A stretch of DNA of 64,000 bases. It comes from Cenococcum geophilum. Lineage: Eukaryota. The notes beneath the pieces are model-generated. The model saw only the letters and a list, made by a program, of their open reading frames with translations, ran no database searches and had not been told where the DNA came from. Shown here one piece after another: positions 16,633 to 50,277 of this stretch (positions are counted from its first letter, which is position 1; each line of letters opens with the position of its first letter). The stretch covers positions 558,001 to 622,000 of the forward strand of contig CP158635.1 of assembly GCA_050273025.1 (NCBI GenBank), read 5' to 3'. The position numbers and the translations under genes were made by a program.

Positions 16633-17195
16633 CCTATCTAGTCTAATATACCTCTTATTACTAAAAGTAGATATATAGATAAGCTACTACTACTAAATAT
16701 TAGATCCTTAAGTATCTATACTAAAGTCTTAACACTATTACCGCCACTAAATTAATCTACCTAGGTGCAATATCTAAGCTAGTTATAGTTAGTAACTATA
16801 TATATATAACCCTTTTAATACCTAATAATACCGCTATATTAGTAGAGAAGGATAATAAGGTAGTAGATATGGATAGAGTAGCACAACAGCAGCTAATAGC
16901 GTTAACTTACTCTCTATCTTTAGTGTATAAATATTTTTAGTTATAACTAGCTAAAAGCGCGGAGCTTACCCTATTATTAGGGAAGGAAGATAGCACTAAA
17001 AATATAGACTAGGTTAGAGAAATAGGCGATATAAGTAAAATAGTTAAGGTATTAATAAGCGGAAGCTAGTATAGAGCCTTTAATAATAATAGTAGCAATA
17101 ATAATAATAGTGGTAATAGCGATAATAGCAATTGTATATAACCTACATTACTATTATAAAAGAGTACGACCTCTCTCACGTTAGGAAAAAAGTTA

Positions 17196-17360
17196 CCAGC
17201 ATTTAATTTTACTTTTTTGCCATTTTAGCATTTTCTAGCATTTCTAGCATTTCCTAGCATTTAGCTGCCAAATGCGGCATTTAGAATTAAGTATTAGCAT
17301 TTAGCTGCCAAATACGGCATTTATAATTAAGCATTAGCATTTAGCTACTAAGTGCTAACT
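17196..17360. repeat. Left subterminal GCATTT/AAATGC motif array of the giant TIR element
   Basis: About a dozen direct and inverted GCATTT copies, including a ~40-bp tandem unit; mirrored at 50320-50362 and echoed at 17560-17600 and 22860-22900. Confidence 0.75.
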
Positions 17361-18559
17361 ATAAGATTACTAAGCGTATATAAAAGTATAATTTTTATAA
17401 TTTTAATATTTTATATACACTTTATTAATATTACTAAGTATATAAAAAAGTATATATTTTATATTTTATATATATTTTATTAATATTAGTAAGCATAGGG
17501 GGCAGGGCGGTATTATAAAAAACTTTACTAGTATCTTAAATTAGGTTTATGCTAATTAAGCAATTTTAGTATTTAGCCGTATTTAGTTATATTTTGCGGC
17601 TATATACTACACCGCTAATAATAATACTATAATTTATAGCTAAACGCTGCCTTAATAATAAAAGTGCTATAAGCTGCAGCTTAATGCTCTCTTAGAAATA
17701 ATAATACTAAAAATATTTTAGTTAACTAAGTTTACTATATACGCTACGCTACTACCTATAAGTTACTAGAAGATATATCCCTTAGCCTATATATACGCCA
17801 CTATATAATTATAATAGGTTTTGCCATATAGCGGCTATATATAGTATTTAGAATTATCTATAGTTACATTATACTCTTATAATCGTTACTAGTATTAGAT
17901 AGTCTTAGTGTCTTCCTTTTTACCTTAGCCTGCTTTTAAGCTTAAATCGGCCTTCTCCTTATATACTAACTTATGTAGTAATAATATAAATTTAGTTAAC
18001 TTTAATATCCTCTACTTAATACTTAACTTTTAATTAGCTATAATAGTATTATAGTAAACGGGCTTAGTCTATCCTTGTTAATCTATCTAAGTAAATAGTT
18101 GCTTTACCTTTAAGAGCTTATAGCTTAGCTTAACTATAATAGTATAATTTACGCGCTATAGGTTAATAGATAGCCTAATTAATATAAAGGTACAAAGTAG
18201 GATCCACTTAGAGTTATTAGTGTTAAAGGTTTACCTAGCCTTAGCCTTCTTAATATTAGATATACTAGCTATATAGCAGAGCATTTTATCTTTACTATAT
18301 TCTTTATATAGCCTATTAAACTAATAAGCTAGTATAAGAGGTAAGTAAGTAGTAATAATAATCTTACACGCTAAACTATCCGTTTATTTTTTAATATAAA
18401 CGTAATTATAGATTTTTTTTAGCTTAAAAGAACTTTATATTCTGTTAAAAATAGCGGTTAAGTATATTAGTAAACTCCTTACTAAGCGGGTTAGTAGTCC
18501 ACTTAGTAATAATTGGGTTCTTAAGTGTGCAACTTTAAGTTTTTAGGCGTTTGTTATTG

Positions 18560-21500
18560 GACTTATTAGACTTATTAGACTTAATTATAATAGGGGCATA
18601 CTAGTCCTAGTATTGGATAACCTAGGCTACGCTTACTACCGTTTTCGCGTTAGTGTATAACTTGGCTTAGGTAAGTTTTAGTATCTTAGGTTTAGTATTT
18701 AAATTACTACTATCTTTCTCTTATATAGCTGGAAGTTCCTTATATTAGCGCCTCTACTTTATCCTTACTTAGTCCTCTATGGCTGTAATTATAGCCGCCT
18801 TAGTATTATTAGGGTCGGCCTATAATATAACTAATTTAAAATAGCTGTTCTTTAGGATAAGCTTTTACTAGTTAAACTAAAGTGTTAACTCCCCTCCATA
18901 TATCTAAAACGTTAGAATAACTATACGGAAAAATGCAGCTAGTTCGCCGAATTTCCTATCTATTATTACTCTAACTAGGTTAGTCTTCGTATCCTTATAG
19001 AGATAGTTAAATTTCTTCTTCTTTAGCTAGATGTTTTTTCTTTAAGCTTAAGCAGTACTTTAAACTCCGTTCCTTTAGCTTATTAGCTTCTTTCTACTCT
19101 GGCCCTTTTAATCCTACTATAATAAACCGCATTAGTTACATTAGGTTTCCGTTATTAGGCGTACTAAATACACCCTATATATTAGGGCTGCGATTATATA
19201 TAATGCGGTACTCCTTAATTATATCCTTAATAAACAATATTAAGACTCTACCGGTCGCGTCTAAGTGGTATTCGTCCTAGAGGATACGCCTAACCTATAT
19301 TACACTTTTTAATTTCTAATATATTCTAGGGGATTGGTTATTTAGGTATTTCTATATACTAGTTTATATAGTAATAAACCCGCGTATTAGTTATGTGGTA
19401 ATACAATTTCGCGTAGTAATTAGAAGGAATTAGGTTAAGTATTTTAGCACTAATAGTTCCGTTATATTAGGGGTAGGGCTATAATTATTCTTAAACCTAG
19501 CTTTACTTTATAGGTGTAATAAAAGAGCCTTACTAACTAGATATATATCGTTATTATTTTCCCATTATTCCTTATTAGTCTACTTAAAAGCCTTACGGAT
19601 TTGCGGCTATTTATCCTTTTTTAGTTTACTAAATATTTTAACTTTATTATAGCTAGGGGCGAGAATTGTAATCTAGGGTGGGTTATGGCGCTTTATAATC
19701 GCGCCGTTTTATAATATTATACTCGCGTTTTTTAGAAATCTTAGTAGGCCCGGGGTTAGCGTAAGGACGACTAAGTAGCCTTACTATAGGTCTATAAGGT
19801 ATAGCTTCTTAAAGTTGTCTTTATAGTAGTATATAATTGGCTGCTTTGCTACTTATAGGTATTTTATATCCAGCAGATATATCTTAGGTAAGTAGTAGGT
19901 TATATTTCTAGTAGCTTAGGCCTCTTAAATATCTATTACGTTCTAATAATAAAAATAGTTTATTAGCTATTAAGTGATTATTTATATAGTCTTGCCCGCG
20001 CTAGGTTCGTCTGTATAGATACCGCCTCCTTTAATTATCCTCTTTTATTTAAATACCTAAGCTATATATACTACTTAATATAGGCTAAATTTAAAGCCTA
20101 ATATAAGGCCCTAATTAGGGAGTTCGATTAGGGCGGTCTCGGAAAGTACTTTTAATAAAATAAGTAGGAAATACTCTAGAGTGAGTAGAAAATCCACATC
20201 TATTACGTACGCTAGTATACTATCTAAGTTATCCTTCCCGGGCTTATAGAGCTGGGCTAAGAAAGTTTGCTAGTTAAGTTCTTCCTCTACGTCTATATTT
20301 TAGTTGTTATTATTAACTAAATCCTTATCTCAGTCTCTACTCTCTATATCCTTAGAGTTAGTGTAATATAGGAACTAATTATTATATCTATTAGCACGTT
20401 ACGGCAATTTACTATCCTTTATAGTAATATTTTAAGGGATATTAATGGTTAGTAATATAGTAGTAGGGTTGTTTATTATATTATTAGGCTAGTATATACC
20501 TTTAGGTTTGGTAATAGATTATAGCAATTTACTATTATTTGCGGCAATTTCTCTAATACCGCTATTACTCGCTAATATAGGCTTATAGGTAGATAGGTTA
20601 CGTCTTCCCTTTACTAATTACCTTCTACGCATAACTGGCTTATTATTGCTGTTTTTTATAAAGATGCCTACCGCTAATTCTACTTAAGGGCGTTTCCTAC
20701 TTCTATTTAGGTTGGCTTTATAACTATTTAACTTCCTAAGCGTAGCTAGCTTACTTTTATTATCCTCTGCTAGAGTACTTATTACTAATTTTAGTTAAGG
20801 CCACTTATTATATCTACCCGATTTAGTTTTATTATTATTTAATTTCTTATATCTAATAGGCTTGCCCTTACTATTTTTATTAGAGCTATATACTACTAAT
20901 CCTAAATAACTCCGCTTCTTACCTTCTCCTAGTTTACTCTTACCGCTAGCCTTATATAGCGTTAGGACTTACTAGCTATCTTTTACGCTATATCTATTAC
21001 GTTTAGGCGCTTTAGATTCGATAGCTAGCGGTATATTATTAGTGGCAGCGACTTAGGAGTTTAAGCTAGGAGGCGAGAGTAATGCTATAAATACGGCCTC
21101 CTTTGTGCTATTTCTTGCTATTTTGCTAAGAGCTATAATAAGTATGCCCTCTAACTATATTATAAGGTTTTTATATCTTTATAGCAATATATAGATATTC
21201 TTTTTAGGCAGACCGTTAATATTAAGCTCTATATAGGCTTGCAGTTCCTCCTATAGCTTACCTAGAGCTATATATAGGTTTCCGCTTATTAGATATAAGA
21301 CTTAAACTACCCTAACTATTAACTTACCTATTAAGCCTATAGATTAGATTTTAATCTTAATATCTTTTATATTAATTACGTTGCTTGCCGCTAGGGTTAC
21401 TAGCTAAGGTAAAGGGATACTATATAGTAGGGTTATAGTAACGTCTATAGGCTATATCGCATATAACAGCTAAGGTAGCGTCGTCTTATCTTATACTTTA

Positions 21501-21900
21501 GTCTTTAGAGGTAACGTATATTTATATAGAGCATACCCACTCTTAGAGGTACTTAGTGCCCTCCTTGCGCGATTAAAATAAGTACTTCCTATAATTTTTA
21601 GGATTACCTACAGTTTCTAATCTAGTAGAGTATTAGTAAATTGTGGGAGTTACTTATAAAACTCCTTAACGTGCCCTTTTTTTATTATTATAGAGTTACT
21701 GCAATATATTACGTACTTAGGCTTAACTTTAATTATAATATCTTTAATATTCTTTTTTAGTCTATTATAGTTTTTAATGCTTATTTTAAAGCCTTAAGTA
21801 ATATCCGTATCTTTAGTTAGCTTTAGGTTCGCTTTATACTACGCGTTTAGCTTTACCTATAATTGCGTTATTATTAAATCACTTATTTAGTTAGGTATGC
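18560..21900 (-). pseudogene. RIP-degenerate ORF-like region of unknown function inside the giant element
   Basis: Long minus-strand stretches whose stops are TAA/TAG compatible with RIP; no motif recognised; limits approximate. Confidence 0.3.
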
Positions 21901-22338
21901 GTAATATTACGGTATATATTAAGTAGAAGGTAACTATTAAAGTAAAAGGGCTTTATACAGTAGCTAGCTAGCACTATACTAGTATAACTCTAGTATTAGA
22001 CGTAGTTAGAGGTTAGTTATAAGAGACGAAAGGTAGGATAAGTAAAGTTAATTAAGAAGAAATAAAGAAGTAAATCTTGTAATTACCTGCACGTGCCCGC
22101 ATAAAGATAAAATTAGCTATAGTTTGCTACTACTAGTTAGGGTAAATACGGCTAAACTTAATACTATATAGTTAAATAAGGGTATAATTATATAACTTAT
22201 AGGGACTACCCTACCTAGCCTATTTAGGGCTAGGTGGCAGTTTAATACTACTAAACTCTTATAGTTTTTAATATAAGTAATTTATTAAGTGCCTATAAAG
22301 GGGTAACTAGTTATTATAGTATAATAGAATATAAGAGG

Positions 22339-22664
22339 TTATAGGCGTTACTATATTTCTTATTATTATATAGAGTCGGTATATATGCGCGCCGCTAGAG
22401 TTAAAGGGCTGGCCTATATCTATACGTATGGGCTTTATTACTGTAAAGTGTTTGCTATATAATAGGTAGTATTTTTAGTAACTAGTAATATATTACACTT
22501 ATTATAGGCGTTACTATATTTCTTATTGTTATATAAAGTTGGTAGATATACGCGCTACTAAAGTTAAAGGGCTAGCCTACATCTATATATGCGGACTCTA
22601 TCGCTATAAAGTGCTTAATATATAATAGGTAGTACTTCTAATAGACAGCAACATATTATACTTA
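22339..22664. repeat. 163-bp tandem duplication (2 copies)
   Basis: TTATAGGCGTTACTATATTTCTTATT... at 22339 and 22502, differing mostly by transitions. Confidence 0.85.
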
Positions 22665-23319
22665 CTTTATAATCGTTAGTGTTATTATTATATTATATAG
22701 TACTTAAGGGCCTACTAGATAAGTCTATCTAAAATAATAATTATTTAGTATATAGGATTTATGTCTATATATAAACATCTAGTGCTTATTTAATATATAT
22801 CTACTATAAAAGGTAGTAGGAGGTTTTATATCTTATATTATAAGTTTATATAATTAATAGCATTTTGCGGTATTTTGCGGCATTTTAGGGCATTTTAGAA
22901 TAATAGATATATTGTATATACTAGCATCTAGCTACTTAGCAATATTAACTTATCTTACTATTTATCTATTTAGTATTCTACTATAGTATTTATTATATTA
23001 AAGTCTCTTAAATTTAATATCTTTATTTTAGATCTATTTAGAACTATATATAGTTTTATAATATTCTACTTCCCGCCTAGTACTCTAGTAAGAGATTATT
23101 TAGTTAATAATACCTTTTCTCTTACTAATTAAGGGAGGAAATGACTTATACTTTCTAGTAGTAGTAGGCTATACTTATTAGTAATATTTTAAATAGATTA
23201 CGGTGTTTAAGTTTTTGTTTACCTATAACGTAATTAGCCTGCCTATAGTAAAGTGCTTTTACTTTACTACTTACTTCTCTTTTTTTTTAACCCTTTTATA
23301 CATTTATATACTCGTATTA

Positions 23320-26300
23320 TAAACTATAAGAGTTTAATAGTGCTAGACTATTGCCTAGCCTATATTAAAAGATAGGCTAGGTAAGATAGTCCCTATAACT
23401 TATACTATACCGCGTCTTCCTCTATAAGTTGGTCTTATTATTATAGATTTACCCTTATACGCGTTTAACCTATAGAGTATATAACTATATACTTTGCCAC
23501 TAAGGCCTTACTTATACAATTTTATTAGGGCGCGCCTTATTTCCTTACCTTTACTAGTTAACCTAACTTTACTAACTACCTACCCTTACTCCTACCCTAT
23601 TAGTATCTACCTTTATAACTGGTACCTTTATAGATTTATTTAAGCTATAGAGCCTTATAATATAGTAAGTTAGCTACTTTATCTTTAGCCTTAGCTATAT
23701 AATAAAGAATCTATATTTACTAATACGTTTATATAAACCACTGCTTAGTATAGCCTACTACTAAAATAGACCTACCTACTAATTATTTTATAACTTATAA
23801 TGTTAACTACATCTATAACTATAAAAAGTTTACTAAGGGCGTTATAGTTTTTAAGATTGCCTTAACTATAGTAGTTATAGGCTCTGGTGTCTTATAAGGT
23901 AATAGTAAGGGCCCTACGCTTAATAAGTCTCTTCTTCTAAAGCTTGGCAGTCTATACCTCTTAGCTAATAACGCTCTAAAATACTATCTTTATCTATTCA
24001 CCAGCTATATATACGCTAATTATTCACTTGGGAAAGCTTCTTAACTTTATTATAGCTATAATAAGGCTAGTTATCTTAAAGCTAACTACCCTAACCCTAT
24101 ATATAATAATTATAGGGAAGCCGGTTATTTTAAGAGTAACTGTCCGAGTATAATATATAACTAATATAGTGCTATAGGCTATAAAAAGCGAGACTATCCC
24201 TAGCTATTAAGTAAGAAGAAGCGGACTTGCCTAAACTATAGCTCCCTAAATTATTAAACTATCTTCTATAGTTAGGTATATAAGAACTATAGAGTTATAG
24301 GGTATAATATTAATAATTATATAAGTAGACCTACTTTAATTCGGGTAATAAATGCCGTAACCGCTCTGGGCAAGGTAGATATACTAAGTACTACCGCTTT
24401 AAGTATAGCTACTACCTCTTTATTGCCTAAACCTCTTAATATAGCCAGCTTCTATCTAGTAGTAGATAGCCTAGTAGATAATCTAGACACCTATATAGAG
24501 GATAGCAATTCTATAATAGCCAAACCTTTAGATATACTCCAGCTTCTAAATAATAACTACTTTATAGTTTAGTTTGTTATACAAATTATTAAAGAGTATA
24601 TTACAGCATATAGCATTATATTTTAGGTGTCCTATAAGACTAGTAAAATGCCTACTTATTATTTATATAAGATAGCGTCTGTCCAATTTATAGATGTTAA
24701 TATCGCCAGCGACGTTAAAGTTAATACTACTAATGCTACTTCTCTAGTTACTTAATAACTGTTATATCTAACTACGCTTAAGTATCTTACTTATATTCTC
24801 CCGTAAGATGCTATAACCCTATAACTTTACTATATTAGGTTTGTTATCGCCTCTAATAAACTTATATTAGGTACGCGCACGTTACTTAGTAAGTACTTAT
24901 TTATTAATAGGGACTTCGGCCTATTTACGCCGTAAATCTATAAAGCTTAGGATATACTATTAAATAGTCCTATAGTTATTATCTACTTCTTTACACCAGG
25001 CACTAAATAGCTTAATAGTTATATTGTAAGCCTAAACGCAAGCCTATAATAGTAGAGTGTTAATAATCCTTTAGGTCGCTAGTGGAAGAACTATAATATA
25101 AATATTTAGCTTAGTATGTAGCTCTTAGTAGAAGACTAACTATTATATAAAATCCCCGTAAGGTATTAGTTTAATAGCGTTCTTAAGTATTTTACGGTCT
25201 AGTTTTATACCGTAGTTATAAGCCTTAAGGCCGTTAATTAAAACCCCAAGGTACTTATTATTATTTATCTTATTACCTTCCTAGGTAGTGTAGACTAAGT
25301 CTACTATGCTGCTATCTAGATGGTTAATAGTCTTACCCTTTATACTAAATTTATTATTAATATCTTATTTCTAGATAAAGATGTAAATAGCTAGGCCAGC
25401 TAGAAAGGAGTTATTATTAATACTACTTCCTTCAGCTTCGGCTATAACTACTATACTTTTATCTTTTAACTATAGGTAGGTTATAAGTTTATACTAAACC
25501 CCGTATTTGCTCTAAAGTATATCCTAAGCAGCGACGACTTTATAATAGTTAGTAACCTAAGTAAGGCCCTAATTACGGTATAGGGCATTAAATATCTTAT
25601 AACTAAGCGTGTCCCTAATGTTAGAATCTCCTAAAAGATTAATACTTTACGCTACCTGTAGTAAGGAGGCAACAGTTTCTATATTAAGCGCTAAATTACG
25701 CTATCTAATAAATTTATAGATCTTCCGCGTATTAATTACTTTAACTATAATATTACTAAGTATAGGAAGAACTTGGTTAATAATGCCCTTAAGGCTGTCT
25801 TACCGCTATTTAATAAAGAGTAAATGGGTACCTGTACTACACTTAAATATATAATAGGCGGTATTTTACTAATATAATGCCCCAGTGGTGTTAGGAAATT
25901 AACCTTTTTAACTATTTTAGTATAATACTAGTATTAACTTAGGTTGCCCTAGTAGGATCCTACTAGAATCTAGGTCCTATCGCCACTTAATTACTAACTA
26001 GATATACTAGCTAAGGCGATTAATAATGCGCTTATAGAGGACTATAAGGCACTAATTACGTAAGGCCGTCCCGCTAAATTTCCTATCGTCCTTTGCCGCT
26101 ATATGCGCTTAACGGAAACCAAGGTCTATAAGCGGGATACCGTTATATAGCAAACAGCGGTAGGTATTAATACTTATCCTAAGTATTTTAAAGAATAGGA
26201 TAACTATGCTATAATTAATAAGGACGCGTTTATACTAAATATAGCATTCCTGCTCTACTATACGTTTAAGGCTAGTAATGCCACCGGCTTTAATAAGCAG

Positions 26301-27825
26301 TTATAGGTTATAGATTTATCTAAAGGTTAGTAGTTATTACGCCTTATAGGTGTCTTAGACAGCGATAGAAACCTATATCTTATTATAGACCCTAATATAA
26401 CTAAATACGCCAAATTCCGCTAATACTTATACTAATTTGCGCTTGGTAATAATATAACACAAAATAATAAAATTGGATTAATACTTGCGGTTAACGTAGT
26501 TATTATAAACCTAGCTAAGAAGGCTAATATTATTCTTATAATACCTAATATAGTCTTGCAGACTTATATATATTTTATTAGCGCTATATATATAGTTTTC
26601 TATAACAAGGCTAGGAAGGCGTCTAAGTTAGGTAGTCTTGCTAGGTTCGCTTAGAGTAAACTATATTTAATTTAGGGAGATCTATAAATCTAGGCTAGCA
26701 ACCTAGTGCCTTAAGTTCTCTTTAGTAATATATACTAACTAAAACCAATTCTTAGTCCTAATTTTAATAATCTATTCCACTATTAGAAATCTATCTCCCT
26801 TTATACGCGTCTCCTCGCGGCTAGTACGGATATGGTGTAGTTCTCACTATAATATTAATTTATTAAAGATATTGCATATCTTATAAATGCCGTTCTACCG
26901 TATAGCTAGCTTTAGATAAGCCTAATAGTTAAGGACTAAAAGCAGTTAAAGCTAGTAGTAAGCTTTTTTAAGGATATACTGCGCTGCGACTACCCTATTG
27001 CCTTCCTTGCTGTTAATAGTACTATATAGGTAAACGAGCTTAGCCAATTAACGTATAACCTGGTCTACGCTTAACGCGTATTCTAAGTAGCTATAGCGCT
27101 AATAGACTTTAGATTTAAGCTATTAGAGGTTAGCCTTACCGTTTTATATATAGTCTAACTTGCTATTTACTCCGCAGCGCTGTATACGCTTAAAGAATAG
27201 TATTATGCCTAGTAAGATAGCAGTAAGTAGCGGGAATTTGCACTAGTAGTTAGCGAGATTAAGGTCTTTACTGTTAACGGCATCTAAGGCAGCTAGGTAG
27301 AGTTATTAGTATATAATATAACAGTCGCTAGCCAGCTAAAATTTATCTAGAATATGGCGAGGAACCTTTTTATAATTACTAGACTATAAGCGGGCCTTAT
27401 TATTATTGGTAGTCCCTAAGTAGTTTATAATTATTATACCGGCGATAAAACCTTTATAAATACTGTATATTATAAAATTAAGAAGTGGTATAAGGATAAT
27501 AAGGTATTTATTAACCTTAAGAATTCTAAGCAGAAAAAGCACTTCTAGCAACTTATTGCCTCGTTTAATGTTAATAAAACTATATAGTATATTTACCGCT
27601 AGCATATAGCTAATTATACGCCCATTTTATATAGTATAAACGTTGACTTTAATATTACTATCCCTAACTTTACGGGTATAGTAAATATTAGCGGTATTAG
27701 TAATTATACTAAAGCGCAGAATAAGGCCAATAGAGAGGGCGCTAATAATAATAGCTAGGGCGGTGCCGGTAATAATAATAAGGATAATAATAGTGGAGAG
27801 GATGTTAGTGGTGTTAAAATATAAG
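23320..27825 (+). pseudogene. Five-CCHC zinc-knuckle + UPF1/DNA2-like superfamily-1 helicase gene, RIP-inactivated
   Basis: 24048-24320: five x-x2-x-x4-x-x4-x units with C/H mostly changed to Y (e.g. YNNYREAGYFKSNC). Walker A LI*CPSGVRKLT (~25870), Walker B VFYNKARKAS = DEAGKAS (~26596), GDL* (~26675), SL.TRL and L*Y*F (~26790-26860), TVNGI*GS* (~27270), RNLFIITRL*AGLIIIG (~27360-27410). Start approximate. Confidence 0.82.
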
Positions 27826-28559
27826 GAGGGTAGTAAGGATAGATATTATAGACTTTACTAGTAGCGAGACCCTTAAATAGGGATACTAGATAGAAGTTAA
27901 GAGCGGTAGTAGCTATAGGCCTTTAATATTTATAATTTTACTGCAGTACTAGGTAAAATACGGCATATTATAACATTATATATTACAGCTATATAAGATA
28001 AACTCTTAATAATTATAATCTCTAAAATAGATAAGCGTATTATAGTAAAGATAGCCTAATTTATAAAGCCTAGTGATCCTAGTTTCTATCACTTATAGGC
28101 TAGTAGTTAATTAATACTAATCCATAATCCAGATTTTAAGGGGTTATTTAGTTATAATTTATCGCTTTTAAATTTAAACTAAAAGTCTAGTAAAAAGAAC
28201 GCGTTCCTTCCCAATTTAATATACATCTATAGCTCTACGGGTTATATAGATATATGTAATTTAAAGCCTTTAGATTTAATCTAGAGTTTAAATAAGAAGC
28301 TTTAAGCTTTTGATTTAAACTAACGCTAAGACCTTAGTTTAGATTCTATATATAGTAAAGTTACTAACTTTTTAGTAACTTTTAGCATGTTTTTTAGAAC
28401 ATCAAAAATTTATAGCTAAAGTTAAGTTAAACTAGAATATAACTAAACGGTTGCCTTAGAATTAGATTAGAGCTTTAAATTAACTCTATTTTAAAGGCCT
28501 TATTTTAATCTAAATTTATAACTAAATGTTCCCTAAGTACTTAATTAGTTAGATTATAG

Positions 28560-30090: not shown

Positions 30091-33000
30091 TGCTCTTACT
30101 ATACTCCTTCTATCTTAACTAGCTTATAATATAGTATAAGCTATAAATACTACTTTAAATATATAGTTCTACACAGATATTATTTTCGGCTCCCTTTTAA
30201 CTAAACTATAGCAAATTATAGCTTAATACGGCAATTTATAAATAAGCTCTATTTAGCGGTAATATAGAAAGTATAGGACCAAAGTAAAAAGCATAGGCAG
30301 TCTAACCTGTTATAAATAATATTGTTTAAGATAACAGAAACGGAAAAAGGGTAGATATAAGGGCGTTAATATTAAAGAGATAAATAATAATATACTCTTA
30401 CGCTATTAAAGCTTAGAGGAATATTAGATAGCCTATTATAGGGCCGAGCTAGAGTAATATAATAAGTAGTCACTTACATAATATATGGACGACGATATAC
30501 TATTATGCTATTAAACCTTAGAAGGGCATTATATAACTAATTATAAGGCCGAATTAGAGTAAGGTAATAAGTGGCCACCTATATAAGCTTTAGGCAATAA
30601 TATTATTAATAAACTAAATAATAGGGCTGCGGATATGCACTATAATAATAATTCCGTAATATTTAATAGGGTATATAACCTAGCGATAGTTAAGACCGAT
30701 TGGTAAACTTTAACTAGAATATCTATAAACGTCTTTTAGACTAAAATATTTAAAGAGGCCACTAGCCGCGCTATAGAAAAGCCTTTGGGACGGAACTAAG
30801 GAAATCCGCAAACTGTAGATAATACTGCAGTAGTATACAATATTATACCGCGTATTAAGCGTACTAGCAGTGCACTAGATAAGACACCTCCCCTATTTTA
30901 TCTATTTAGTAGTAAGGTAGAATATATATAGGTTTTATAGTAGGTAAGCTACAGGACTTCTAGCCGCGCTATTAATGAGTAGTTTAACGATATTAGGCTT
31001 TAGGGAATGTTTACTAACTATTTTTCTTACTAGAGTGCTAACAATATTAAAGCAAAACTACTTTTAAAATAGATATAATCTAAGAGTAATTAACCGTAGT
31101 AGATTAAAATAATTATAACCGTAGGGGACTAGTAGCTGCTAGTATATTACCAAAATGCTCTAAAGATTGTGTCCTTTTTTATTAGTTACGGCCCTTTTTA
31201 AGAAGATATAACTTTCTCGCTAGTAAGATAGTACTTATTAGTAGGAATAAGAATATATAATGGGCTTGATACGGCAAACTAGTGGTAAAAGACGTAAGAG
31301 TAGCTACCGCTTAGCGTAACTATAGTGCTAATTATATTAGCTAGCAATAAGACCTAACTAATACAATACGCTAGCGGCAAGAAAGTATAGCTGCTTTATA
31401 TTTTAATTAGAAATATTAAACTGCGTATTTAATAATCCGTAAATTAACTAGCCCTATTACTACTTATATACCTCCTAGTCTATATACCTAGCAACTAAAT
31501 AATATAACTAGCAGTGCAATATAAGACCCTCACGGCTATCCTTAAATGTATACTTTAGCGATAACCCTACTACTAGTATAGTTATACTAATAATGTGGGA
31601 GGGTACGACCACTCTTAGATAGGAAAGTCACAGTGCCGTCTGTCTGTCTGTCGGTCGGTCGGTCGGTCGGTCGGTCGGTCGGTCGTCAGTCGTAATCAAT
31701 TAGTAGGAAAGCAGTTAGTAAGAAGAAAGGAAAGAATGTATTCCGGTAGGTCGTGGTGGCCAAGAAGGAGGGAAGCCGAAGGCTCTATAAATACAAGAAA
31801 ATGCCAAGGTACTAGGCGTAAGCCATTTTACCCCACTATATACCTCCCCCACTAAGAACGTTGTCCCCTAACGTTCTATATAATAGAAGAATAGCCCAAA
31901 GAAAGCATAGCGAAAGCAGAATAGAAAAAGGAAAGCACATCCCTAAAAGAACGCAGATAACCTTGTCCTTAGCTCCTATAGAACTGTTCTACGGCGTCCT
32001 TCTATTATCTATAGCTAAGATCCGACCTAGTAACTAGGAGTAACTAGGACAGCAGTAAATCAGAAATAATAGCGACAGTAGCAATAGCAGTAATAGCAGT
32101 AACAACAGTAATAGTAGTAGTAGTAACGGTAATAGAAATAGCAATAAAAGCAGGTATCTAGCGCAGTAAAATAAAACAGGACGGTTAGCGGTAGAATGGT
32201 CAGTAATAAAACAGTTAGTAGAAGAACTCGGTCCGTATAGCAAGCAATAGGACATCTGGCAGTAGAACTTTTAATAAAAGAATACTTAGTAACGGCAGAC
32301 GGTCGATAGCAGTTGGTTAGTAGCAGTCGGTTAAAATAGTAGTAGTAGAATAATTGGAACAGTGGAACGGAACAGTTAAACAGCAGTAGTAGAATAGCTA
32401 GTCGGAACAGCAGTAGCAGTAACAGTAGTAGTAGAACAGTTGGTCGGCGGCGGTCGGTCGGAGTAGCGCTTAGTGGAAATAGTAGAACGGAATAGGTCGG
32501 TTAGAATAGTTAGGCGTTATAGCAGATCTAGTAGATCTAGTAGTAAAATAGATCTAGTAATAGTACAGATCTAGAACGGTAGAGACAGCAGTTGGTTAAG
32601 ATAGTAAGAATGAAATAGCTAGACGGAATAGCGGCAGCAGCGGCAGCGGTAGTAGGGCAGTTAATTAAGACGGTAGAGGCTATAACCCAACTCGATTATT
32701 CGGCTGGCTGTTTGATATTAAGACTCTGTATCTAGCTCTGTATCAATCTACATTATACACGGCTCTCAATTAAGGCTCTATCCGTGGCGTTGCATTAGGC
32801 CCTATATCGTTAAGCTTTACGTCCGTATAGCTCTGCAGCTAACTATGCGTCTAACTGTGCGTCAGTAGCTCTGTATTGCATATTCTGCGTCTATAGTTCT
32901 AAAACGTCGACTAGTAATGCTTCCGACGATCTATTAACTATATACTGTTTTCCTATATAGGCCTAGTGTCTATGTGCGTGCCTATATGCCTGCTTTAATT

Positions 33001-34229
33001 GCCGGACGAAGACTGTCTAATTGGTTAGCGACAACGTGCTGTAACTAATTGTTCGGTTATTTAATTAAAGTAGAAAGTCGGCCTAGTTAAAAGCTCTAAT
33101 TATCCTAATTTAAATGCAGAGATGGTGTTTAGCTAATCGAGATCTAACAAGACCCTGGCTTAACTTAAGGTGTCTTCTACTATGCGTATAACTGGGGCTT
33201 TACATCCGTAGATAGCTAATTAAGGCTTCTATATAGACGTCTAATTAGTTAAGGTTCCGCATCTGCCGTTTAATTAAGGCTTCGTATCTATAGGCGTCCA
33301 GTTAAGCTGCCGTACTGTTATCCAATTAAGGCTCTATACCTATATACTCTATATCTATAGACTCCGTATAAAACTCCGTGTAAAGCTCCGTATCTATATC
33401 TATAGGAAAGATCGTTCTAATATAAATCCGTAGGCGTTAAGACGTGCGGCAATTAATTAACTAAGGGGTTAAAGGGAGAGGCTCTCGCAGAGGCTCTAAG
33501 ACGTTAATTAGCCGTGTTTCTAATGTTCTATTAGCCGTATACTGGTTTCCTAATTAGGCCTACTCTACTACCTACGCTAATATCTAGTATCTTTTACTAG
33601 CGGTTAAAGATGTTTAGTTGGCTGGCGACAGGTAACTGATTTAATTTAGCTGCGACAGGGTATAATCGTCTAACGTTTAAATAGGGTATTAGGTCGGCCC
33701 GGTCGAAGACTCTAATTTAACAACTTAACTATAGAGGTAGCGTTTAACTAATTTAATTCAGTGACGGCAACGTGCTAATATTAAGGCTCTGGCTTAATTT
33801 AACTCTTTAACCAGTTATGGCTTTTATACGGTCGCTTAACTAATCAAGGCTTCTATACAGTTATTTAATTAAGACTTTACGTCTAGCTCTGCGTCTAGCT
33901 CTATATTATATAATCAGCTCTATATCCGTGTAATTAATTAAGGCTCCTAGTGCCGTTCTCATTATACAGCTAGCGCATCGTTAAATTCTAGGGGCAGTAT
34001 AGAGTTCTGCCGGCTTTACTACTAAATGGACCAATTAGGATTTTCCGTCCCTGGGATAGAAAATCGCTATTAGCTCGGCGATAGGCGGTAAGCTAAACTA
34101 ACATCTTTACGGCAGGTCGTCTTAACGCGTTATAATTAAGAAAGTAAATAAGAACGGAGCTTTAGGAAATATAGTAAATAAGTAGATAAATAGAAATCTT
34201 TTATACGGCCGTTACCTACGTCCCCTCCC

Positions 34230-36620
34230 CTACCTTAGAACTTAACTGTCCCCTAGTTAAACATTCTATACCTACTATAGAGTTTGCTTTAAGCGTCTAC
34301 CTCTAATAACCGTCTCTAATAACTGTCTCTAAGGGTTAGGTAATTCTAATAGTAGTCCTCCCTAGCTTTAGCTGCCTTCTCTATAGGCCGTAACCTAATC
34401 TATATATAGTCTTCTAGTCGTATATTACTCTTCTATGGCTTAATAGCTGTCCTAGTTGCGCGGCTGTCTTTAAGGGTTAGGCGATTTTAATAGTAGTCCC
34501 TTTAGTTTATACTTTTTTTGTTACTAATCTCTAGTACTGCTCTATCATAGAAGGCCCGTTACTGCGTCTATTCTTTTCTTAGTCTCTCTAGGTCCGTTCC
34601 CTAATACGTACAGAGCCAGTTCTTAATACCCTCTAGCCGTCCTTTATTGCCGAGCTAAGGTAGTTTAGGTCTAGGTCGGTTACGTATTCTAGCTACTAGT
34701 CTTCCTTAATTAGATAGATGTATAAGTCCTTACTAAATAAGATCCTTTAAGCCTTAATACTCGTACTTAGTAAAACGGTAACTTCCTCCGCATCTAAAAT
34801 AGGTCTATTAGCCTAGGCCAGATCGCGTGCTATCCTGCTAACCCTATACGTCCTACTACTGTCGTCTAAAGGCAGTAGAATCTTATGGATATTAAAAGTC
34901 TTACGGAGCAAAGGGAGCTTGGGTGCTATTCTGCTAGTCTTTATATCCTAGTACTAGGCTATATCCTTATACTAGGCCTTAAGCTATAGCCTGGTTTAAT
35001 AGCGTTATAAGCTTCTTTAGGTCTATTTGTATTTAATTAAGGAACGGCATTGATTGTATAGCTACTGCAGGCTCCGTCTTGCTTAGCCTTAGGCTCTTTA
35101 GCTAGCTTTCTATTTCACCAATTTCTTAATCTATAGTAGGGGGTAACTACTGCCGCGTTAGGGCTCCTCCGTATATACCTAGTCTACCTAGGTCCTAATA
35201 TCTTCCTTCCCTTTAGCGGCCGAGCTCCTTAAATTCTGGGCTCGTTTCCTGATTGGCTTAACGGGCATCGGCTGTCTTACTTGGCTGGAAGATTGTAGGT
35301 GGTTAAATAGTAGTATCTTTGCTTATGGCTGGCTGCTAATTATAGAACTGCTTAACCAGCTAACAAAGGCTCTACTTCTTAGGGTCCATTTTTAACAGAT
35401 AATCTGCGCCCTTATATAAACTAAGCCTATTCTCTACGGCTCTCTATAGCTGATAAAAGTTAAAGAATTCTCGTCTATCTGGATTAGCTCCCGTTTTAGC
35501 TATAGCATATCTTTAATACTTAAGCGAAAGTCCTTTTATAAATAAGTATCCTCGCTAACCGTTCTCTAGGTTACCTGCTTTAGTAGCCTTTTAAGAAATT
35601 AATATAAACTGTCTACAGTACTCGCGTATACTGTTTGACGGATTGTCCCTATACTGCTATATATAGGCTTTTAAGAATTCTACCGTTTCTATTTATCGAA
35701 ATTGGTTACTTCCTTAGTATTCTGCCCTAAGCTTTCTTATAAGCTCCGTCTAGCCACTAGCTATAAATTTAGGCAAGCTTTAGATCCACATCCCTATCTA
35801 GTAATTACAGTACTCTAGAAGGCCCTAGTGCTTCTCCTCACTTATTGCGTAGTATTGGACGCATAGCCGTTTATACTGCTTAATAAACTGTAATATATTC
35901 TGTCCTGCGAAGTAGGGAGTTCTAATAGTTCCTAGGGCTGGCATAGGCTAAACCATAATATAGATCTTGTCTCGAGCCGTCAACTACTGGTTATAGGATA
36001 GTGTATCTAGAGCTTCCTTAGGAGCTTGCAGGTAATCCTTACGGCTCCTATCCTTTATCTGCTAAGAGTTATTAATCCTAGGTGTTATAAGTAAACGCTA
36101 TAGTAAGTCTGCTTGCATTGCTACCTAAGGTAATAGTGTCCTAGATAGCTGTCCTGGTGTTAGTTTATACTTAGCAAAAGAAGTATAGGCTTTGGTTCCT
36201 TCTAGCTACTTCTTAACGCCTAGAGGCCGGTCTTCCTAGAAGAGTATAAAATCGCTATCTTTTACTACTACCGGGTCTTAATACGTCTATCTATTTTAGC
36301 CTACCGTTGCTCCGCACAGTAGGGTGCTGCTAAGCCTTACACTTCCACCTGTATCTACTTCTTTATAGAACGCCTTTAGAGCTGCCGTAGATATAATCTA
36401 GATAACTTAAAAGAAGATAAAGCTAAGCTAGAATAGGAAGCTTTTAAGGGCAGATCTAATCTCGTGTACTTATAACCTTAGCTAGTATTCTCTCTTCTAT
36501 TCCTAAAGGGCAGCGCTAACTTCCTCTGCCGCTAGATACCTTAGATCTCGTTTCCATCTAATTAATTAGCTCTTAGCTTATTGTCTCTATATCTTTAATA
36601 AAGCTTTAGCCATGCTCGTG
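34230..36620 (-). pseudogene. gag-like ORF, tandem unit 1
   Basis: PYFAGQN motif at ~35890-35950 and CF(G)CGGS(H)RFTK(H)E(C) knuckle at ~34757-34802; RIP stops; limits approximate. Confidence 0.7.
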
Positions 36621-39600
36621 CGCGGGTAGTAGAAATATCAGGTAATTCCAACCGGTTAAAGTCGTCTAATTAGCTCGCCTGTTCGCTAGACATCCTTACT
36701 TATAATTTCTATAACACTCTTTTACCTCCTATTGCCACTCTTTAGCCTATACATCAAGTCTAATGTCTATCTTTTCCGCTGTCTTTCTGTTTAGGGACTA
36801 CCTGGTTCCCCTTACTATCCGATACTGCCTAGTTCTCTACTTCTGCTATCTTATTAGTCTAGCTAGCGGTTCTTTTATAGCTAATTATTCTTTTACAGCT
36901 AGCGGTTCTTCTATAGCTATAATATATTCCTGCGTATCTCCTATATATATAGTTGTGTATAAAATACCAGACTTCTAATCTAAAGAGCTTGCCGTCGTCC
37001 CTATGTGGAATGCCATAAAATATATAGGAGGGTACGACCACTCTCAGATAGGAAAGTCACAGTGCCGTCTATTTGTCTGTCGGTCAGTCAGTCGGTCGGT
37101 TGGTCGGTCGTCAGTTGTAATCAATTAGTAGGAAAGCAGTCAGTAAGAAGAAAGGAAAGAATATATTCCGGTAGGTTGTGGTGGCCAAGAAGGAGGGAAG
37201 CCGAAGGCTTTATAAATATAAGAAAATGCCAAGGTACTAGGCGTGAGCCATTTTACCCCACTATATACCTCCCCTACTAAGAACGTTGTCCCCTAACGTT
37301 CTATACAATAGAAGAATAGCCTAAAGAAAGCATAGCGAAAGTAGAATAGAAAAAGGAAAGCATATCCCTAAAAGAACGCAGATAACCTCGTCCTTAGCTT
37401 CTATAGAACTGTTCTATAGCGTCCTTCTATTATCTATAGCTAAGATCTGACCTAGTAACTAGGAGTAACTAGAACAGCAGTAAATCAGAAATAATAGCGA
37501 CAGTAGCAATAGCAGTAATAGTAGTAGTAGTAACGGCAATAGAAATAGTAATAAAAGTAGGTATTTAGCGTAGTAAAATAAAACAGGACGGTTAGCGGTA
37601 GAACGGTTAGTAATAAAATAGTTAGTAGAAGAACTTGGTCTGTATAGCAAGCAATAGGATATCTAGTAGTAGAACTTTTAATAGAAGAACACTTAGTAAC
37701 GGCAGACGGTCGATAGCAGTCGGTTAGTAGCAGTTGGTTAAAATAGCAGTAGTAGAATAATTAGAACAGTGGAACGGAATAGTTAAACAGTAGCAGCAGA
37801 ATAGCTAGTCGGAACAGTAGTAGCAGTAATAGTAGTAGTAGAACAGTCGGTCGGCGGCGGTTAGTTAAAGTAGCGCTTAGTGGAAATAGTAGAACGGAAC
37901 AGGTCGGTTAGAATAGTTGGGCGTTATAGTAGATCTAGCAGATCTAGCAGTAAAATAGATCTAGTAACGGTACAGATCTAGAACGGTAGAGATAGTAGTT
38001 AATTAAGACAGCAAGAATGAAATAGCTGGACGGAATAGCGGTAGCAGCGGCAGCAGTAGTAGGGCAGTTAATTAAGACGGCAGAGGCTATAACCCGACTC
38101 GATCGTTCGGCTGGCCGTTTAATATTAAGACTCTGTATCTAGCTCTGCATCGATCTACATCGTATACAGCTCTTAATTAAGGCTCTATCCGTGGCGTTGC
38201 ATTAGGCCCTATATCGTTAAGCTTTACGTCCGCATAGCTCTGCAGCTGACTGTGCGTCTAACTATGCGTCAGTAGCTCTGTATTGCATATTCTGCGTCTA
38301 TGGTTTTAAAACATCAACTAATAATACTTCCGACGATCTACTAACTGTATACTGTTTTCCTATATAGGCCTAGTGTCTATATGCGTGCCTATATGCCTAC
38401 TTTAATTGCCGGACAAAGACTATCTAATTAGTTGGCAACAACGTACTGCAACTAATCGTTTGGTTATTTAATTAAAGTAGAAAGTCGGCCTAGTCGAAAG
38501 CTCTAATTGTCCTAATTTAAATGCGGAGACGGCGTTCAGCTAATTAAGATCCAACAAGGCCCTGGCTTAACTCAAGGTGTCTTCTACTATGCGTACAACT
38601 AAGGCTTTATATCCGTAGACAGCTAATTAAGGCTTCTGTATAGACGTCCAATTAGTTAAGGTTCCGCATCTACCGTTTAATTAAGGCTTTGCATCTATAG
38701 GCGTCCAGTTAAGCTGCCGTACTATTATCTAATTAAGGCTCTGCACTTGTATGCTCTATATCTATAAACTCCGTATAAAACTTTATATAAAGCTCCGTAT
38801 CTATATCTATAGGAAAGATCGTTCTAATATAAATCTATAGGCGTTAAGACGTGCGGCAATTAATTAACTAAGGGGTTAAAGGAAGAGGCTCTCGCAGAGG
38901 CTCTAAGACGTTAATTAGCCGTATTTCTGATGTTCTATTAGCCGTATACTAGTTTCCTAATTAGGCCTGCTCTACTACCTACGCTAATATCTAGTATCTT
39001 TTACTGGCGGTTAAAGATATTTAGTTAGCTGGCGACGGGTAACTGATTTAATTTGGCTGCGATAGTGTATAATCGTCTAACGTTTAAATAGGGTATTAGG
39101 TCGGCCCGGTCGAAGACTCTAATTTAACAACTTAACTATAGAGGCAGCGTTTGACTAATTTAATTCAGTAACGGCAACGTGCTAACATTGAGGCTCTGGC
39201 TTAATTCGACTCTTTAACTAGTTATAGCTTCTATACGGTCGCTTAACTAATTAAGGCTTCTATGCAGTTATTTAATTAAGACTTTACGTCTAGCTCTACA
39301 TCTAGCTCTATATTATACAATCGGCTCTATATCTATGCAATTAATTAAGGCTCCTAGTGCCGTTTTTATTATATAGCTGGCGCATCGTTAAATTCTAGGG
39401 GCGGTATAGAGTTCTGCCGGCTTTACTACTAAATAGACCAATTAGGATTTTCCGTCCCCGGGATAGAAAATTGCTATTAGCTCGGCAATAGGCGGTAAGC
39501 TGAACTAATATCTTTACGGCAGGTTGTCTTAACACGTCGCGATTAAGAAAGTAAATAAGAACGGAGCTTTAGGAAATATAGTAAATAAGCAGATAAATAG

Positions 39601-39636
39601 AAATCTTTTATACGGCCGTTACCTACGTCCCCTCCC

Positions 39637-42027
39637 CCACCTTAGAACTTAACTATCCCCTAGTTAAATATTCTACACCTACTATAGAGTCTACTTTAAG
39701 CGTCCGCCTCTAATGACCGTCTCTAATAACCGTCTCTAAGGGTCGGGCGATTTTGATAGTAGTCCTCCCTAGCTTTAGCTGCCTTCTCTATAGGCCGTAA
39801 CCTAATCTGCATATAGTCTTCTAGTCATATATTACTCTCCTATGGCTTAATAGCTGTCCTGGTTACGCGGCTGTCTTTAAGGGTTAGGCGATTCTAATAG
39901 TAGTCCCCCTAGTTCGTGCTTTTTTTGTTACTAATCTCTAGTACTACTCCGTTATAGAAGGCCCGTTACTATGTCTATTCTTTTCTTAGTCTCTCTAAGT
40001 CCGTTCCCTAATACATATAGAGCTAGTTCTTAATACCCTCTAGCCGTCCTTTATTGCTAAGCCAAGGTAGTTTAGGTCTAGGTCGGTTGCGTATCCCAGC
40101 TACTAGTCTTCCTTAATTAGATAGATATACAAGTCCTTACTAAATAAGATCCTTTAAGCCTTAATACTCATACTTAGTAAAACGGTAACTTCCTCCGCAT
40201 CTAAAACAGGTCTATTGGCCTGGGCTAGATCGCGTGCCATCCTGCTAACCCTATACGTCCCACTACTATCATCCAAAGGCAGTAGAATCTTGCAGATATT
40301 GAAAGTCTTACAGAGTAAAGGGAGCTCGGGTGCTGTTCTGCTAGTCTTTATATCCTAGTACTAGGCTATATCCTTATACTAGGCCTTAAGCTGCAGCCTG
40401 GTTTAATAGCGTTATAAGCTTCTTTAGGTCTATCCGTATTTAATTAAGGAACGGCATTAATCGTATAGCTACTGCAGGCTCCGTCTTACTTAGCCTTAGG
40501 CTCTTTAGCTAGCTTTCCATTTCACCAATTTCTTAATCTATGGTAGGGGGTAACCGCTACCGCGTTAGGGCTCCTCTATGTATACCTGGTCTACCTAGGT
40601 CCTAACGTCTTCCTTCCCTTTAGCGGCCGAGCTCCTTAAGTTCTGGGCCCGTTTCCTAATTGGCTTAACAGGCATCGGCTGTCTTACTTGGCTAGAAGAT
40701 CGTAGGTGGTTATATAGCAGCATCTTTGCTTATGGCTGGCTGCTAATTACAGAACTGCTTAACCAGCTAACGAAGGCTCTGCTCCTTAGGGTCCATTTTT
40801 AATAGATAATCTGCGCCCTTATATAAACTAAGCCTATTCTCTACGGCTCTCTATAGCTGATAAAAGTTAAAGAATTCTCGTCTATCTGGATCAGCTTCCG
40901 TTTTAGCCATAGCATATCTTTAATACTTAAGCGGAAGTCCTTTTATAAATAAGTATCCTCGCTAACCGTTCTCTAGGTTACCTACTTTAGTAGCCTTTTA
41001 AGAGATTAATGCGAACTGTTTATAGTACTCGCGTATGCTGTTTAACGGATTGTCCCTATACTGCTGTATATAGGCTTCTAAGAATTCTACCGTTTCCATT
41101 TGTCGAAATTGGTCACTTCCTTAGTATTCTGCCCTAAGCTTTCTTACAAGCTCCGTCCAGCCACTAGCTGTAAATTTAGGCAAGCTTTGGATCTACATCC
41201 CTATCTAGTAATTGCAGTACTCTAGAAGGCCCTGGTGCTTCTCCTTACTTATTGCGTGGTATCGGACGCATAGCCGTTTATACTACTTAATAAACTGTAA
41301 TACGTTCTGTCCTACAAAGTAGGGAGTTCCAATAGTTCCTGGGGCTGGCATAGGCTAAACCATAATATAGATCTTGTCTTAAGCCGTCGACTGCTAGTTA
41401 TAGGATAGTACATCTAGAGCTTCCTTAGGAGCTTATAGGTGATCCTTACGGCTCCTATCCTTTATCTACTAAGAGTCATTAATCCTAGGTGTTATAAGTA
41501 AACGCTATAGTAAGTCTGCTTGCATTACTACCTAAGGTAATAGTGTCCTAGATAGCTGTCCTGGTGTTGGTTTATACTCAGCAAAAGAAGTATAGGCTTC
41601 GGTTCTTTTTAGCTACTTCTTAACGCCTAGAGGCCGGTCTTCCTAGAAGAGCACAGAATCGCCATCTTTCACTACTGCTGGGTCTTAATACGTCCATCTA
41701 TTTTGGCCTGCCGTTGCTCCGCATAGTAGGGTGCTGCTAAGCCTTATACTTCCGCCTATATCTACTTCTTTATAGAACGCCTTTAGAGCTGCCGCAGATA
41801 CAATCCGGATGACTTAAAAGAAGATAAAGCTAAGCCAGAATAGGAAGCTTTTAAGGGCAGATCTAATCTCGTGTACTTATAACCTTAGCTAGTATTCTCT
41901 CTTCTGTTCCTAAAGGGCAGCGCTAACTTCCTCTACCGCTAGATACCTTAGATCTCGTTTCTATCTAATTAATTAGCTCTTAGCTTGTTGTCTCTATATC
42001 TTTAATAAAGCTCTAGCCATGCTCGTG
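39637..42027 (-). pseudogene. gag-like ORF, tandem unit 2
   Basis: Copy of 34230-36620 offset by 5407 bp with an independent set of transitions. Confidence 0.7.
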
Positions 42028-49971: not shown

Positions 49972-50277
49972 ACACCACGTTATTAGATATAGTAGTATAT
50001 TTACACCGCGTTATTAAATACGGTAGTATACTATATTATATTATTAGATATAGCAGTATGCTATACCGTATTATTAAATACGGTAGAATACTATACCGCG
50101 TTATTAGATTCGGTAGTATACTTATACCGCATTACTAGATACGGCAGTATGCTATACTACGTTATTAGATACAGCAGTATGCTATACTACGTTATTAGAT
50201 ACGGCAGTATACTATATCGCGTTATTAGATGCGGCAGTATGCTGCACCGCGTTATTAGATATGGCAGTATGCTGTAC
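49972..50277. repeat. 30-bp tandem repeat (~10 copies) in the right subterminal region of the giant element
   Basis: Consensus CTATACCGCGTTATTAGATACGGCAGTATG, head to tail; a second ~29-bp array lies at ~49673-49822. Confidence 0.9.

Follow-up and report, generated by a model that had tools for sequence, protein, structure and literature searches.

A RIP-inactivated zinc-knuckle UPF1-like helicase gene and its probable SNF2-like partner within a Plavaka-type element of Cenococcum geophilum

Why would a large UPF1-like helicase gene lie between the ends of a DNA transposon? Cut-and-paste transposons rarely carry large enzymes besides the transposase. The question is raised by a 64-kb stretch of contig CP158635.1 of Cenococcum geophilum (the window; all coordinates below are positions in this whole stretch), for which an earlier note, made from the sequence, had proposed a transposon-borne zinc-knuckle helicase ruined by repeat-induced point mutation (RIP). 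We found that the gene encodes a UPF1-type superfamily 1B (SF1B) helicase core preceded by an N-terminal array of six CCHC zinc knuckles and by an accessory region that is not catalytic, that it is RIP-dead and that, at this locus, it is transposon-borne. The explanation we favour, with a probability of roughly 0.6, is that this gene and a second ATPase gene beside it were passengers of a ~33-kb Plavaka-type element, amplified with the element and then killed by RIP.

Past its first ~2 kb, the window consists of RIP-type AT-rich DNA, with a GC content of 0.28–0.45, a TA/AT index of 1.46–2.0 and a (CA+TG)/(AC+GT) index of 0.27–0.72. Across the helicase region, one plus-strand frame (codons at 23001+3n) has far fewer stops than the other frames. 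Searches with intact relatives using tblastn recovered this single frame from 23766 to 27830 without a frameshift, with residues 237–1312 of one relative (P0002) aligned as one segment. The start codon is now ATA, and the original stop lies somewhere in 27831–27851. The 1355 codons contain 84 in-frame stops, comprising 45 TAG, 39 TAA and no TGA. Since no frameshift has accumulated over 4.06 kb and the stops are exclusively of the RIP type, duplication most likely took place while the gene was still intact.

The decay also follows RIP at the level of individual residues. Among 277 conserved columns, in which at least four of five close homologues agree, the window keeps the same residue in 125, differs by C>T or G>A changes only in 129 and differs otherwise in 23; that is, 254 of 277 are identical or RIP-revertible. 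Random codons of the same frame, used as a control, give 13.6 identical and 35.5 RIP-only columns. The homologues were retrieved with phmmer from a database of 1.84 billion representative proteins, using a read-through translation in which TAA and TAG were read as Q and TGA as W. There were 112 matches at E<=1e-3, 62 at E<=1e-10 and 16 at E<=1e-30. The best match (P0001, E 5.8e-109) is an intact hypothetical protein of 1554 amino acids from Kalmusia sp., and P0002 (E 1.6e-103, 1317 amino acids, likewise intact) aligns with query residues 188–1200 in one stretch. Intact relatives occur in Pleosporales and in metagenomes, the closest belonging to Pleosporales ascomycetes; they include KAJ4286924.1 (Kalmusia sp.), KAH5708163.1 and KAH6510772.1 (P. 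nodorum) and USP80398.1 (Curvularia clavata), and one relative, P0018, is annotated in P. nodorum. A separate homologue search with the helicase alignment returned only the query itself. Within the window, a RIP-aware scan of all six frames found no second copy: it scored 1096 at the gene and nothing above 60 elsewhere, the reversed query reaching at most 47.

Pfam found no family in the window's own helicase translation with X at stops, so the domain assignment rests on the homologues. Searching with X at stops must therefore be insensitive on other frames as well, yet it did detect the Plavaka domain described below. In 12 homologues, Pfam identified zf-CCHC in nine, AAA_12 in nine and AAA_11 in seven, four of these seven at the Pfam cut-off. 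The RIP-masked form of the knuckle, [CY]x2[CY]x4[HY]x4[CY], occurs six times within 340 nt in the gene frame, against 0 and 1 times in the other two plus-strand frames of 23001–28200 and 39 times in the 127,996 residues of all six window frames. In the MAFFT alignment, the homologues' Cx2Cx4Hx4C knuckles face six window units of the form Y/C-x2-Y/C-x4-Y-x4-Y/C. A profile of five intact homologues, searched against the Protein Data Bank (PDB), matched UPF1 (1.1e-28), NAM7 (1e-23), Aquarius (~2e-21) and IGHMBP2 (4e-17), followed by SEN1 (8e-16; SEN1/SETX), ZNFX1 (5e-15) and DNA2 (1e-11), and a single-sequence query gave a similar picture. The profile matched 43 PDB sequences at E<=1e-3, and none of these chains is named Pif1. 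Air2 and retroviral nucleocapsids were matched by the knuckles. There is no UPF1 CH domain: the PDB alignments span the helicase core only, and the N-terminus is made up of the CCHC knuckles.

Between the knuckles and the core lie ~470 residues, which we modelled from an intact metagenomic relative (on contig L001, described below) with 29 aligned sequences and a mean pLDDT (predicted local distance difference test) of 83.6. Foldseek gave no match to this model at E<=1e-3, and it placed the C-terminal part with Upf1 and Sen1 with high probability. In a representative-wide fold search, residues ~29–204 resembled PH-like folds (Z 5–6.6, best 6.6) and residues ~265–388 formed a barrel that aligned with the 1B domains of Upf1 and SETX (Z 5.3–5.9), both results being marginal. 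No nuclease, Rep or recombinase fold was present among the fold matches of the region, all at Z<=6.6. Matches in the ESM Atlas were all below 0.9 and serve as leads to accessory domains of UPF1-like helicases.

Taken together, homologue searches, the Pfam domains of the homologues and PDB profile matches bear out the earlier note's call of a zinc-knuckle, UPF1-like superfamily 1 (SF1) helicase gene. Its SF1 motifs are also in the order that the note gave: I, Ia, II, III, IV, V and VI follow one another in one frame once C>T and G>A changes are allowed. Two details needed revision. The knuckle array is RIP-masked as described and comprises six units by pattern count, not five; and the gene is now placed at 23766 to ~27851, the start of the proposed span of 23320–27825 belonging instead to an arm of an unrelated 1.2-kb inverted-repeat unit.

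Besides long homologues, the phmmer search returned 59 short matches (<=140 amino acids), mostly 51–87% identical to the window translation, a few being 31–37% identical. Those looked up sit on short metagenome contigs. The fragments tile the helicase gene, and they differ from one another and from the window mainly by D/N, T/I, V/I, H/Y, A/T, E/K and G/S exchanges, in both directions; opposite window stops they carry Q, W or R. Judged by this pattern, they read as independent RIP-scrambled versions of one gene that was multicopy. The repetition that had earlier been deduced from heavy RIP is supported in this way, 13 distinct RIP-type variants overlapping a single interval of the gene (24495–24539).

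The helicase gene lies within an element of ~33.2 kb with ends at ~17175 and ~50385. A search for inverted repeats between 2000–18600 and 43000–58000 produced two adjacent matches. A 26-nt motif occurs solely at 17179–17204 (+) and 50355–50380 (-), identical at 24 of 26 positions, with 0 occurrences expected by chance, and a 20-nt motif, for which the chance expectation is 0.01, is present twice on the left (17257 and 17297, +) and once on the right (50320, -). The two pairs are collinear and inverted. Inside the left end there are also seven copies of AGCATTT at 17198–17336, as well as short tandem arrays. The ends read ..CTCTCACGTTAGG and ..CCTGACGCAGATAGG, with RIP transitions blurring the last ~10 nt; because the outermost bases differ only by transitions, the exact ends and any target-site duplication are unreadable. 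About 3.3 kb downstream of the helicase, on the same strand, is a Plavaka transposase domain (PF18759) scoring above its Pfam cut-off. A second, sub-threshold part of the same profile complements the first on the same strand, across an insertion (Table 1). From left to right, the order is left terminal inverted repeat (TIR), SNF2-like gene (-), helicase (+), split Plavaka transposase (+), ~7 kb of decayed sequence with nested inserts, and right TIR. This anatomy is CACTA/EnSpm-like. The location of the helicase between inverted termini had been claimed previously, and the motif pairs agree with it; the profile match places a Plavaka transposase domain within those same termini. At the ends of the gene itself, no inverted repeat joins 23200–23800 to 27600–28600.

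Table 1. Features of the Plavaka-type element and its gene block, by position in the window
Feature	Position	Strand	Evidence or reading
Left terminal inverted repeat and subterminal AGCATTT repeats	17170..17350	+	motif pairs, repeat count
Probable SNF2-like (superfamily 2, SF2) ATPase pseudogene, head-to-head with helicase	18100..21900	-	low-stop frame, motifs, RIP-aware alignment
1.2-kb unit with ~100-nt inverted arms, between divergent genes	22180..23415	.	inverted-repeat search, E 1e-8
RIP-inactivated 6xCCHC and UPF1-like SF1B helicase gene	23766..27851	+	tblastn, MAFFT alignment, stop and column counts
Six CCHC zinc knuckles, Cys/His now mostly Tyr	23982..24320	+	pattern count, homologue alignment
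Helicase core	25878..27413	+	alignment to homologues
Motif I	25887-25904	+	window GVRKLT; homologues GTGKT / GVGKS
Motif Ia	~25974-26003	+	window SPLNY*LD
Motif II	26601-26624	+	window YNKARKAS; homologues HDEAGKxx
Motif III	26724-26747	+	window SNIY*LKP; homologues GDxxQxxP
Motif IV	26850-26861	+	window *Y*F; homologues QHRF
Motif V	27270-27293	+	window TVNGI*GS
Motif VI	27378-27413	+	window TRL*AGLIIIGS
Plavaka transposase domain, first part (profile 44-162 of 325)	31136..31478	+	PF18759, E 5.1e-8, 33 bits, cut-off 26.3
Tandem R-Y-R-Y-R insertion splitting the transposase gene	31593..42691	+	two 5.4-kb units and a 244-263-nt third start
Plavaka transposase domain, second part (profile 190-321 of 325)	42673..43090	+	PF18759, E 1.2e-3, 18.6 bits, sub-threshold
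Right subterminal ~30-nt tandem array (49969-50313) and right terminal inverted repeat (50313-50389)	49969..50389	-	motif pairs, array

Upstream of the helicase, a minus-strand frame running from ~21900 down to ~18100 has few stops. It reads ..FSLY*VVYIA*.. and L.[HY][Q*]..[W*], followed by GGGIYTDEPSAGKTI at ~20030–19988, a stretch that looks like the Q-motif and Walker A region of SF2/SNF2 proteins; about 230 codons beyond GGGIYTDEPSAGKTI, at ~19280, the frame reads DEYH (DE.H). For comparisons with decayed frames, we used a RIP-aware aligner, whose codon-level log-odds scores model C>T and G>A decay and whose null scores are 30–40; on the helicase, it gives 529 against 302 with plain BLOSUM scoring. 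The SNF2-like gene of contig L001 aligned to the upstream frame with a motif I block scoring 52, against 37–45 for reversed-sequence controls. Of four other weak blocks, three are collinear with this one and the fourth lies elsewhere; the C-terminal and motif II blocks scored at noise level. A short-protein search with the upstream translation returned 20 fragments, 68–87% identical. Because 14 distinct RIP-type variants overlap 20953–20804, this gene, too, was multicopy. Pfam, run on 10 of the 20 fragments, found nothing meaningful. The upstream gene is thus a probable SNF2-like ATPase, arranged as the neighbour of the helicase in L001, and the earlier reading had overlooked it.

Contig L001 (10,113 nt) is the one locus with flanking sequence that a metagenome scan for the helicase recovered; a scan of viral contigs gave no locus. 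It encodes an intact helicase with five knuckles at 5470–9510 (+) and, head-to-head with it, a long minus-strand gene, more clearly SNF2-like than the one in the window, that contains LADLMGLGKTVQ, ..ADEIHS.. and, by eye and in another frame, a C-terminal ..RGYRIGQ.. motif. Pfam matched this gene weakly to SNF2-rel_dom (E 0.043), and in the ESM Atlas, the 10 best family-bearing matches all share a family or clan (SNF2-rel_dom/ResIII types) at ~0.94, which we take as a lead only. A homologue search with it at lengths of 990–3150 amino acids returned nothing, a length range that probably excluded prokaryote-style open reading frame (ORF) calls. The SNF2-like gene occupies 586–4539 (minus). Its two in-frame stops, together with a C-terminal part in another frame, suggest that it contains introns, and long stretches of low complexity, both acidic and made of 21-nt repeats, occupy its middle. 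A 147-nt tandem duplication at 5142–5448, immediately before the helicase start, is reminiscent of a 163-nt duplication upstream of the window gene. The contig ends 0.6 kb past the helicase; its last part (9832–10113), ~320 nt past the helicase stop, is an array in which a 22-nt unit is repeated at least 11 times.

The 163-nt tandem duplication of the window (22339–22664) belongs to the 1.2-kb unit between the two divergent genes. The arms of this unit (22180–22279 and 23309–23415) are unrelated to the termini of the big element, and it is probably a small nested foldback insert or one resembling a miniature inverted-repeat transposable element (MITE). The insertion that splits the transposase spans ~11 kb. 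Its units at 31593–37021 and 37022–42428 are 92.3% identical over 5424 nt, and the first 244 nt of the unit recur at 42429 with 96.7% identity. No Pfam family was found in it; a (GTCG)n microsatellite is present in each R, a gag-like CFRCGG knuckle lies on the minus strand, and the whole is possibly a non-autonomous retroelement pair sharing one repeat. A weak, sub-threshold match to DUF6532 (18 bits, E 0.0028) downstream of the Plavaka domain, at 46253–46474 (+), may mark another protein encoded by the element. At 47262–49447, framed by two 221-nt direct repeats of 98.6% identity (47262–47482 and 49227–49447), lies a GC-rich island in which the GC content rises to 0.52; it contains ~90–150-nt repeats and proline-rich low-complexity ORFs. 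RIP seems to have touched this island much less than the DNA around it, so that it probably inserted more recently. A 58%-identical direct repeat (16578–16949 and 28152–28524) was set aside, being not significant on shuffling.

Beyond the right end of the element, a 415-nt direct repeat (51115–51529 and 59620–60034, 91.6% identical) represents another repeat family. Pfam on the 51 stop-free window ORFs of at least 75 amino acids identified solely ubiquitin-family and RING-finger matches, plus an Extensin-like low-complexity match; a second, weak Extensin-like match was discounted. The ubiquitin and RING-finger ORFs (110–1732) occupy the sole non-RIP part of the window (GC 0.44–0.48) and are an ordinary host gene or genes at the edge of the AT-rich block. 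Among 24 sequencing runs listed, 20 contain 0.19–0.48 of the sampled words and none reaches half.

How could two ATPase genes come to be repeated and then destroyed? In the explanation that we prefer, the SNF2-like and helicase genes would have been carried and amplified by cut-and-paste transposition of the element; amplification would have made both of them targets of RIP, which would then have inactivated all genes of the copy. A weaker suggestion, drawn by analogy with the TET/JBP genes of Plavaka and KDZ elements, is that the pair may have served the element as long as copies were alive. Single-stranded nucleic acid would be gripped by the knuckles during 5' to 3' translocation of the helicase, and chromatin or DNA would be the substrate of the SNF2-like motor; either motor might help excision and integration or blunt host silencing. 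A broader version of this idea, which we put forward tentatively and regard as doubtful, is that in a Dothideomycete helicase-bearing Plavaka lineage, the head-to-head pair of SNF2-like and six-knuckle UPF1-like genes is standing equipment, an ascomycete counterpart of the TET/JBP genes on basidiomycete Plavaka/KDZ elements. The pair would then be part of the transposition machinery or a counter to RNA- or chromatin-based silencing, and the X3-type repeats of P. nodorum would be relics of the same kind of element.

Several observations weigh against the passenger explanation. On the side of the element, the TIR pair by itself is marginal in blastn, at 41.0 bits where 12 shuffles reached up to 39.4, no target-site duplication is readable at ~17175 or ~50385, and several elements are nested inside the 33 kb, so the termini might belong to another one. 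Plavaka termini are described as TGT..ACA or CATCA..TGATG, with target-site duplications of 2–3 bp, in the available text of PMC12730594, and the window termini could not be matched to either form. On the side of the cargo, the SNF2-like assignment in the window depends mainly on the motif I block, and the window translation of the upstream gene had no PDB match. The linkage of helicase and Plavaka transposase is seen at this one locus. The evidence for multiple copies covers the two cargo genes and leaves out the transposase part and the termini, and some of the fragments, being metagenomic, may be strain variants instead of paralogues. Finally, no Plavaka domain was found on L001, in the minus frames of 1–5400, the plus frames of 9400–10113 or seven ORFs, the helicase among them.

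CACTA elements capture host genes in plants, and a host block of SNF2-like and CCHC-helicase genes could likewise have been captured once by the Plavaka lineage, in which case L001 and the annotated homologues would be host loci, and the helicase would serve the host in the surveillance of RNA or DNA without having a function for the element. The intact homologues are indeed annotated as ordinary genes on long contigs, such as a 661-kb contig in Kalmusia; they are only 30–35% identical to each other, as in an old gene family, and the L001 helicase has a similar neighbour and no visible transposase. That contig, however, is too short to show the absence of a transposase. Moreover, the gene is still transposon-borne here, the many RIP-type variants of both genes show amplification, and the multicopy X3 repeat of P. 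nodorum with its SNF2-like helicase, as described in PMC3017866, hints at recurrent multicopy behaviour. We consider a one-off capture unlikely.

The same X3 repeats inspire a different account, in which the two-helicase block moves or duplicates as a unit of its own, like X3 or X3X3R8, beside or nested in a Plavaka relic and amplified without the Plavaka transposase. The available description of X3 and X3X3R8 gives them helicase genes and no transposase (PMC3017866), P0018 shows that a relative of the window helicase is present in P. nodorum, and L001 is about the size of such a unit. The block, however, sits ~0.9 kb inside the left TIR and has no termini of its own that we could find around it: the best inverted and direct repeats joining 14500–18600 to 27800–31700 scored 33.1 and 36.3 bits, whereas the null maxima were 41.0 and 39.4. 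Among the fold matches of the accessory region, and by Pfam in either gene, no recombinase, Rep or nuclease domain was seen. We judge this account improbable, somewhat more so than a single capture. Very improbable, in our estimate, is that the gene, as a subtelomeric or segmentally duplicated member of a helicase family, came to lie among decayed elements by chance and was never a passenger. RIP-hit subtelomeric helicase families are known in fungi, according to the accessible portions of 10.1101/721753 and PMC3017866, but here the termini and the transposase domain flank the gene in the expected order, and no telomere repeats were noticed, in the course of work that included no search aimed at them.

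If the passenger explanation is true, a Plavaka element with a UPF1-type knuckle helicase and an SNF2-like motor would add two new classes of accessory enzyme to such transposons. The TET/JBP cargo known from Plavaka/KDZ elements is presumed to counter silencing by the host; the new cargo would point to a battleground between fungal transposons and their hosts in RNA surveillance or chromatin remodelling. The arrangement might also explain the multicopy 'helicase gene cluster' repeats of Pleosporales pathogens. The window copy itself is dead, and the existence of intact homologues makes the reading testable.

Compared with known systems, the family stands closest to UPF1-like SF1B helicases, with which it shares AAA_12/AAA_11 domains and a PDB profile ranking led by UPF1. 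It differs from them by its low identity and its place inside a transposon, and from UPF1 in particular by having, instead of the CH domain, five to six retroviral-type CCHC knuckles and what is modelled as a PH-like module (Z ~6, marginal). Helitrons (Rep plus Pif1), AcademH and KolobokH have in common with the window element that a DNA transposon carries a helicase gene; in the available text of PMC10799480, their helicases are Pif1-type SF1 or DEAD/Helicase_C SF2 enzymes tied to other transposases. The matches of our accessory-region model, all at Z<=6.6, include no HUH/Rep-like fold of the Helitron kind.

The repeats of P. nodorum are compared here by their description in the available part of Hane and Oliver 2010 (PMC3017866). 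X3 is a RIP-degraded repeat of 9364 bp, with 213 copies or fragments and an SNF2-like helicase, and X3X3R8 is a composite with three helicase genes and no transposase, read there as an endogenous gene cluster. Like the block in the window, they are RIP-degraded and multicopy and combine SNF2-like with further helicase genes; unlike it, they are described without a transposase and with a ubiquitin-conjugating enzyme gene. As far as that description goes, the X3-type repeats may be the same kind of unit as the window block.

A literature search found no description of Plavaka/EnSpm elements with UPF1-like or SNF2-like cargo. A parallel exists with Plavaka/EnSpm-like (CMCT) elements bearing TET/JBP genes, which have been proposed to aid silencing escape on Plavaka and other elements (Kojima 2025, PMC12730594). 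As far as the available text of that source describes them, they resemble the window element in the Plavaka domain, in TIRs accompanied by subterminal repeats and in having, next to the transposase, an accessory gene whose product is a nucleic-acid enzyme. The same text places Plavaka families in Agaricomycotina, with a TET-bearing 'PE' type also in Pezizomycetes, whereas the closest relatives of the window helicase are from Pleosporales ascomycetes; and in place of TET/JBP, the element in C. geophilum carries two ATPase genes.

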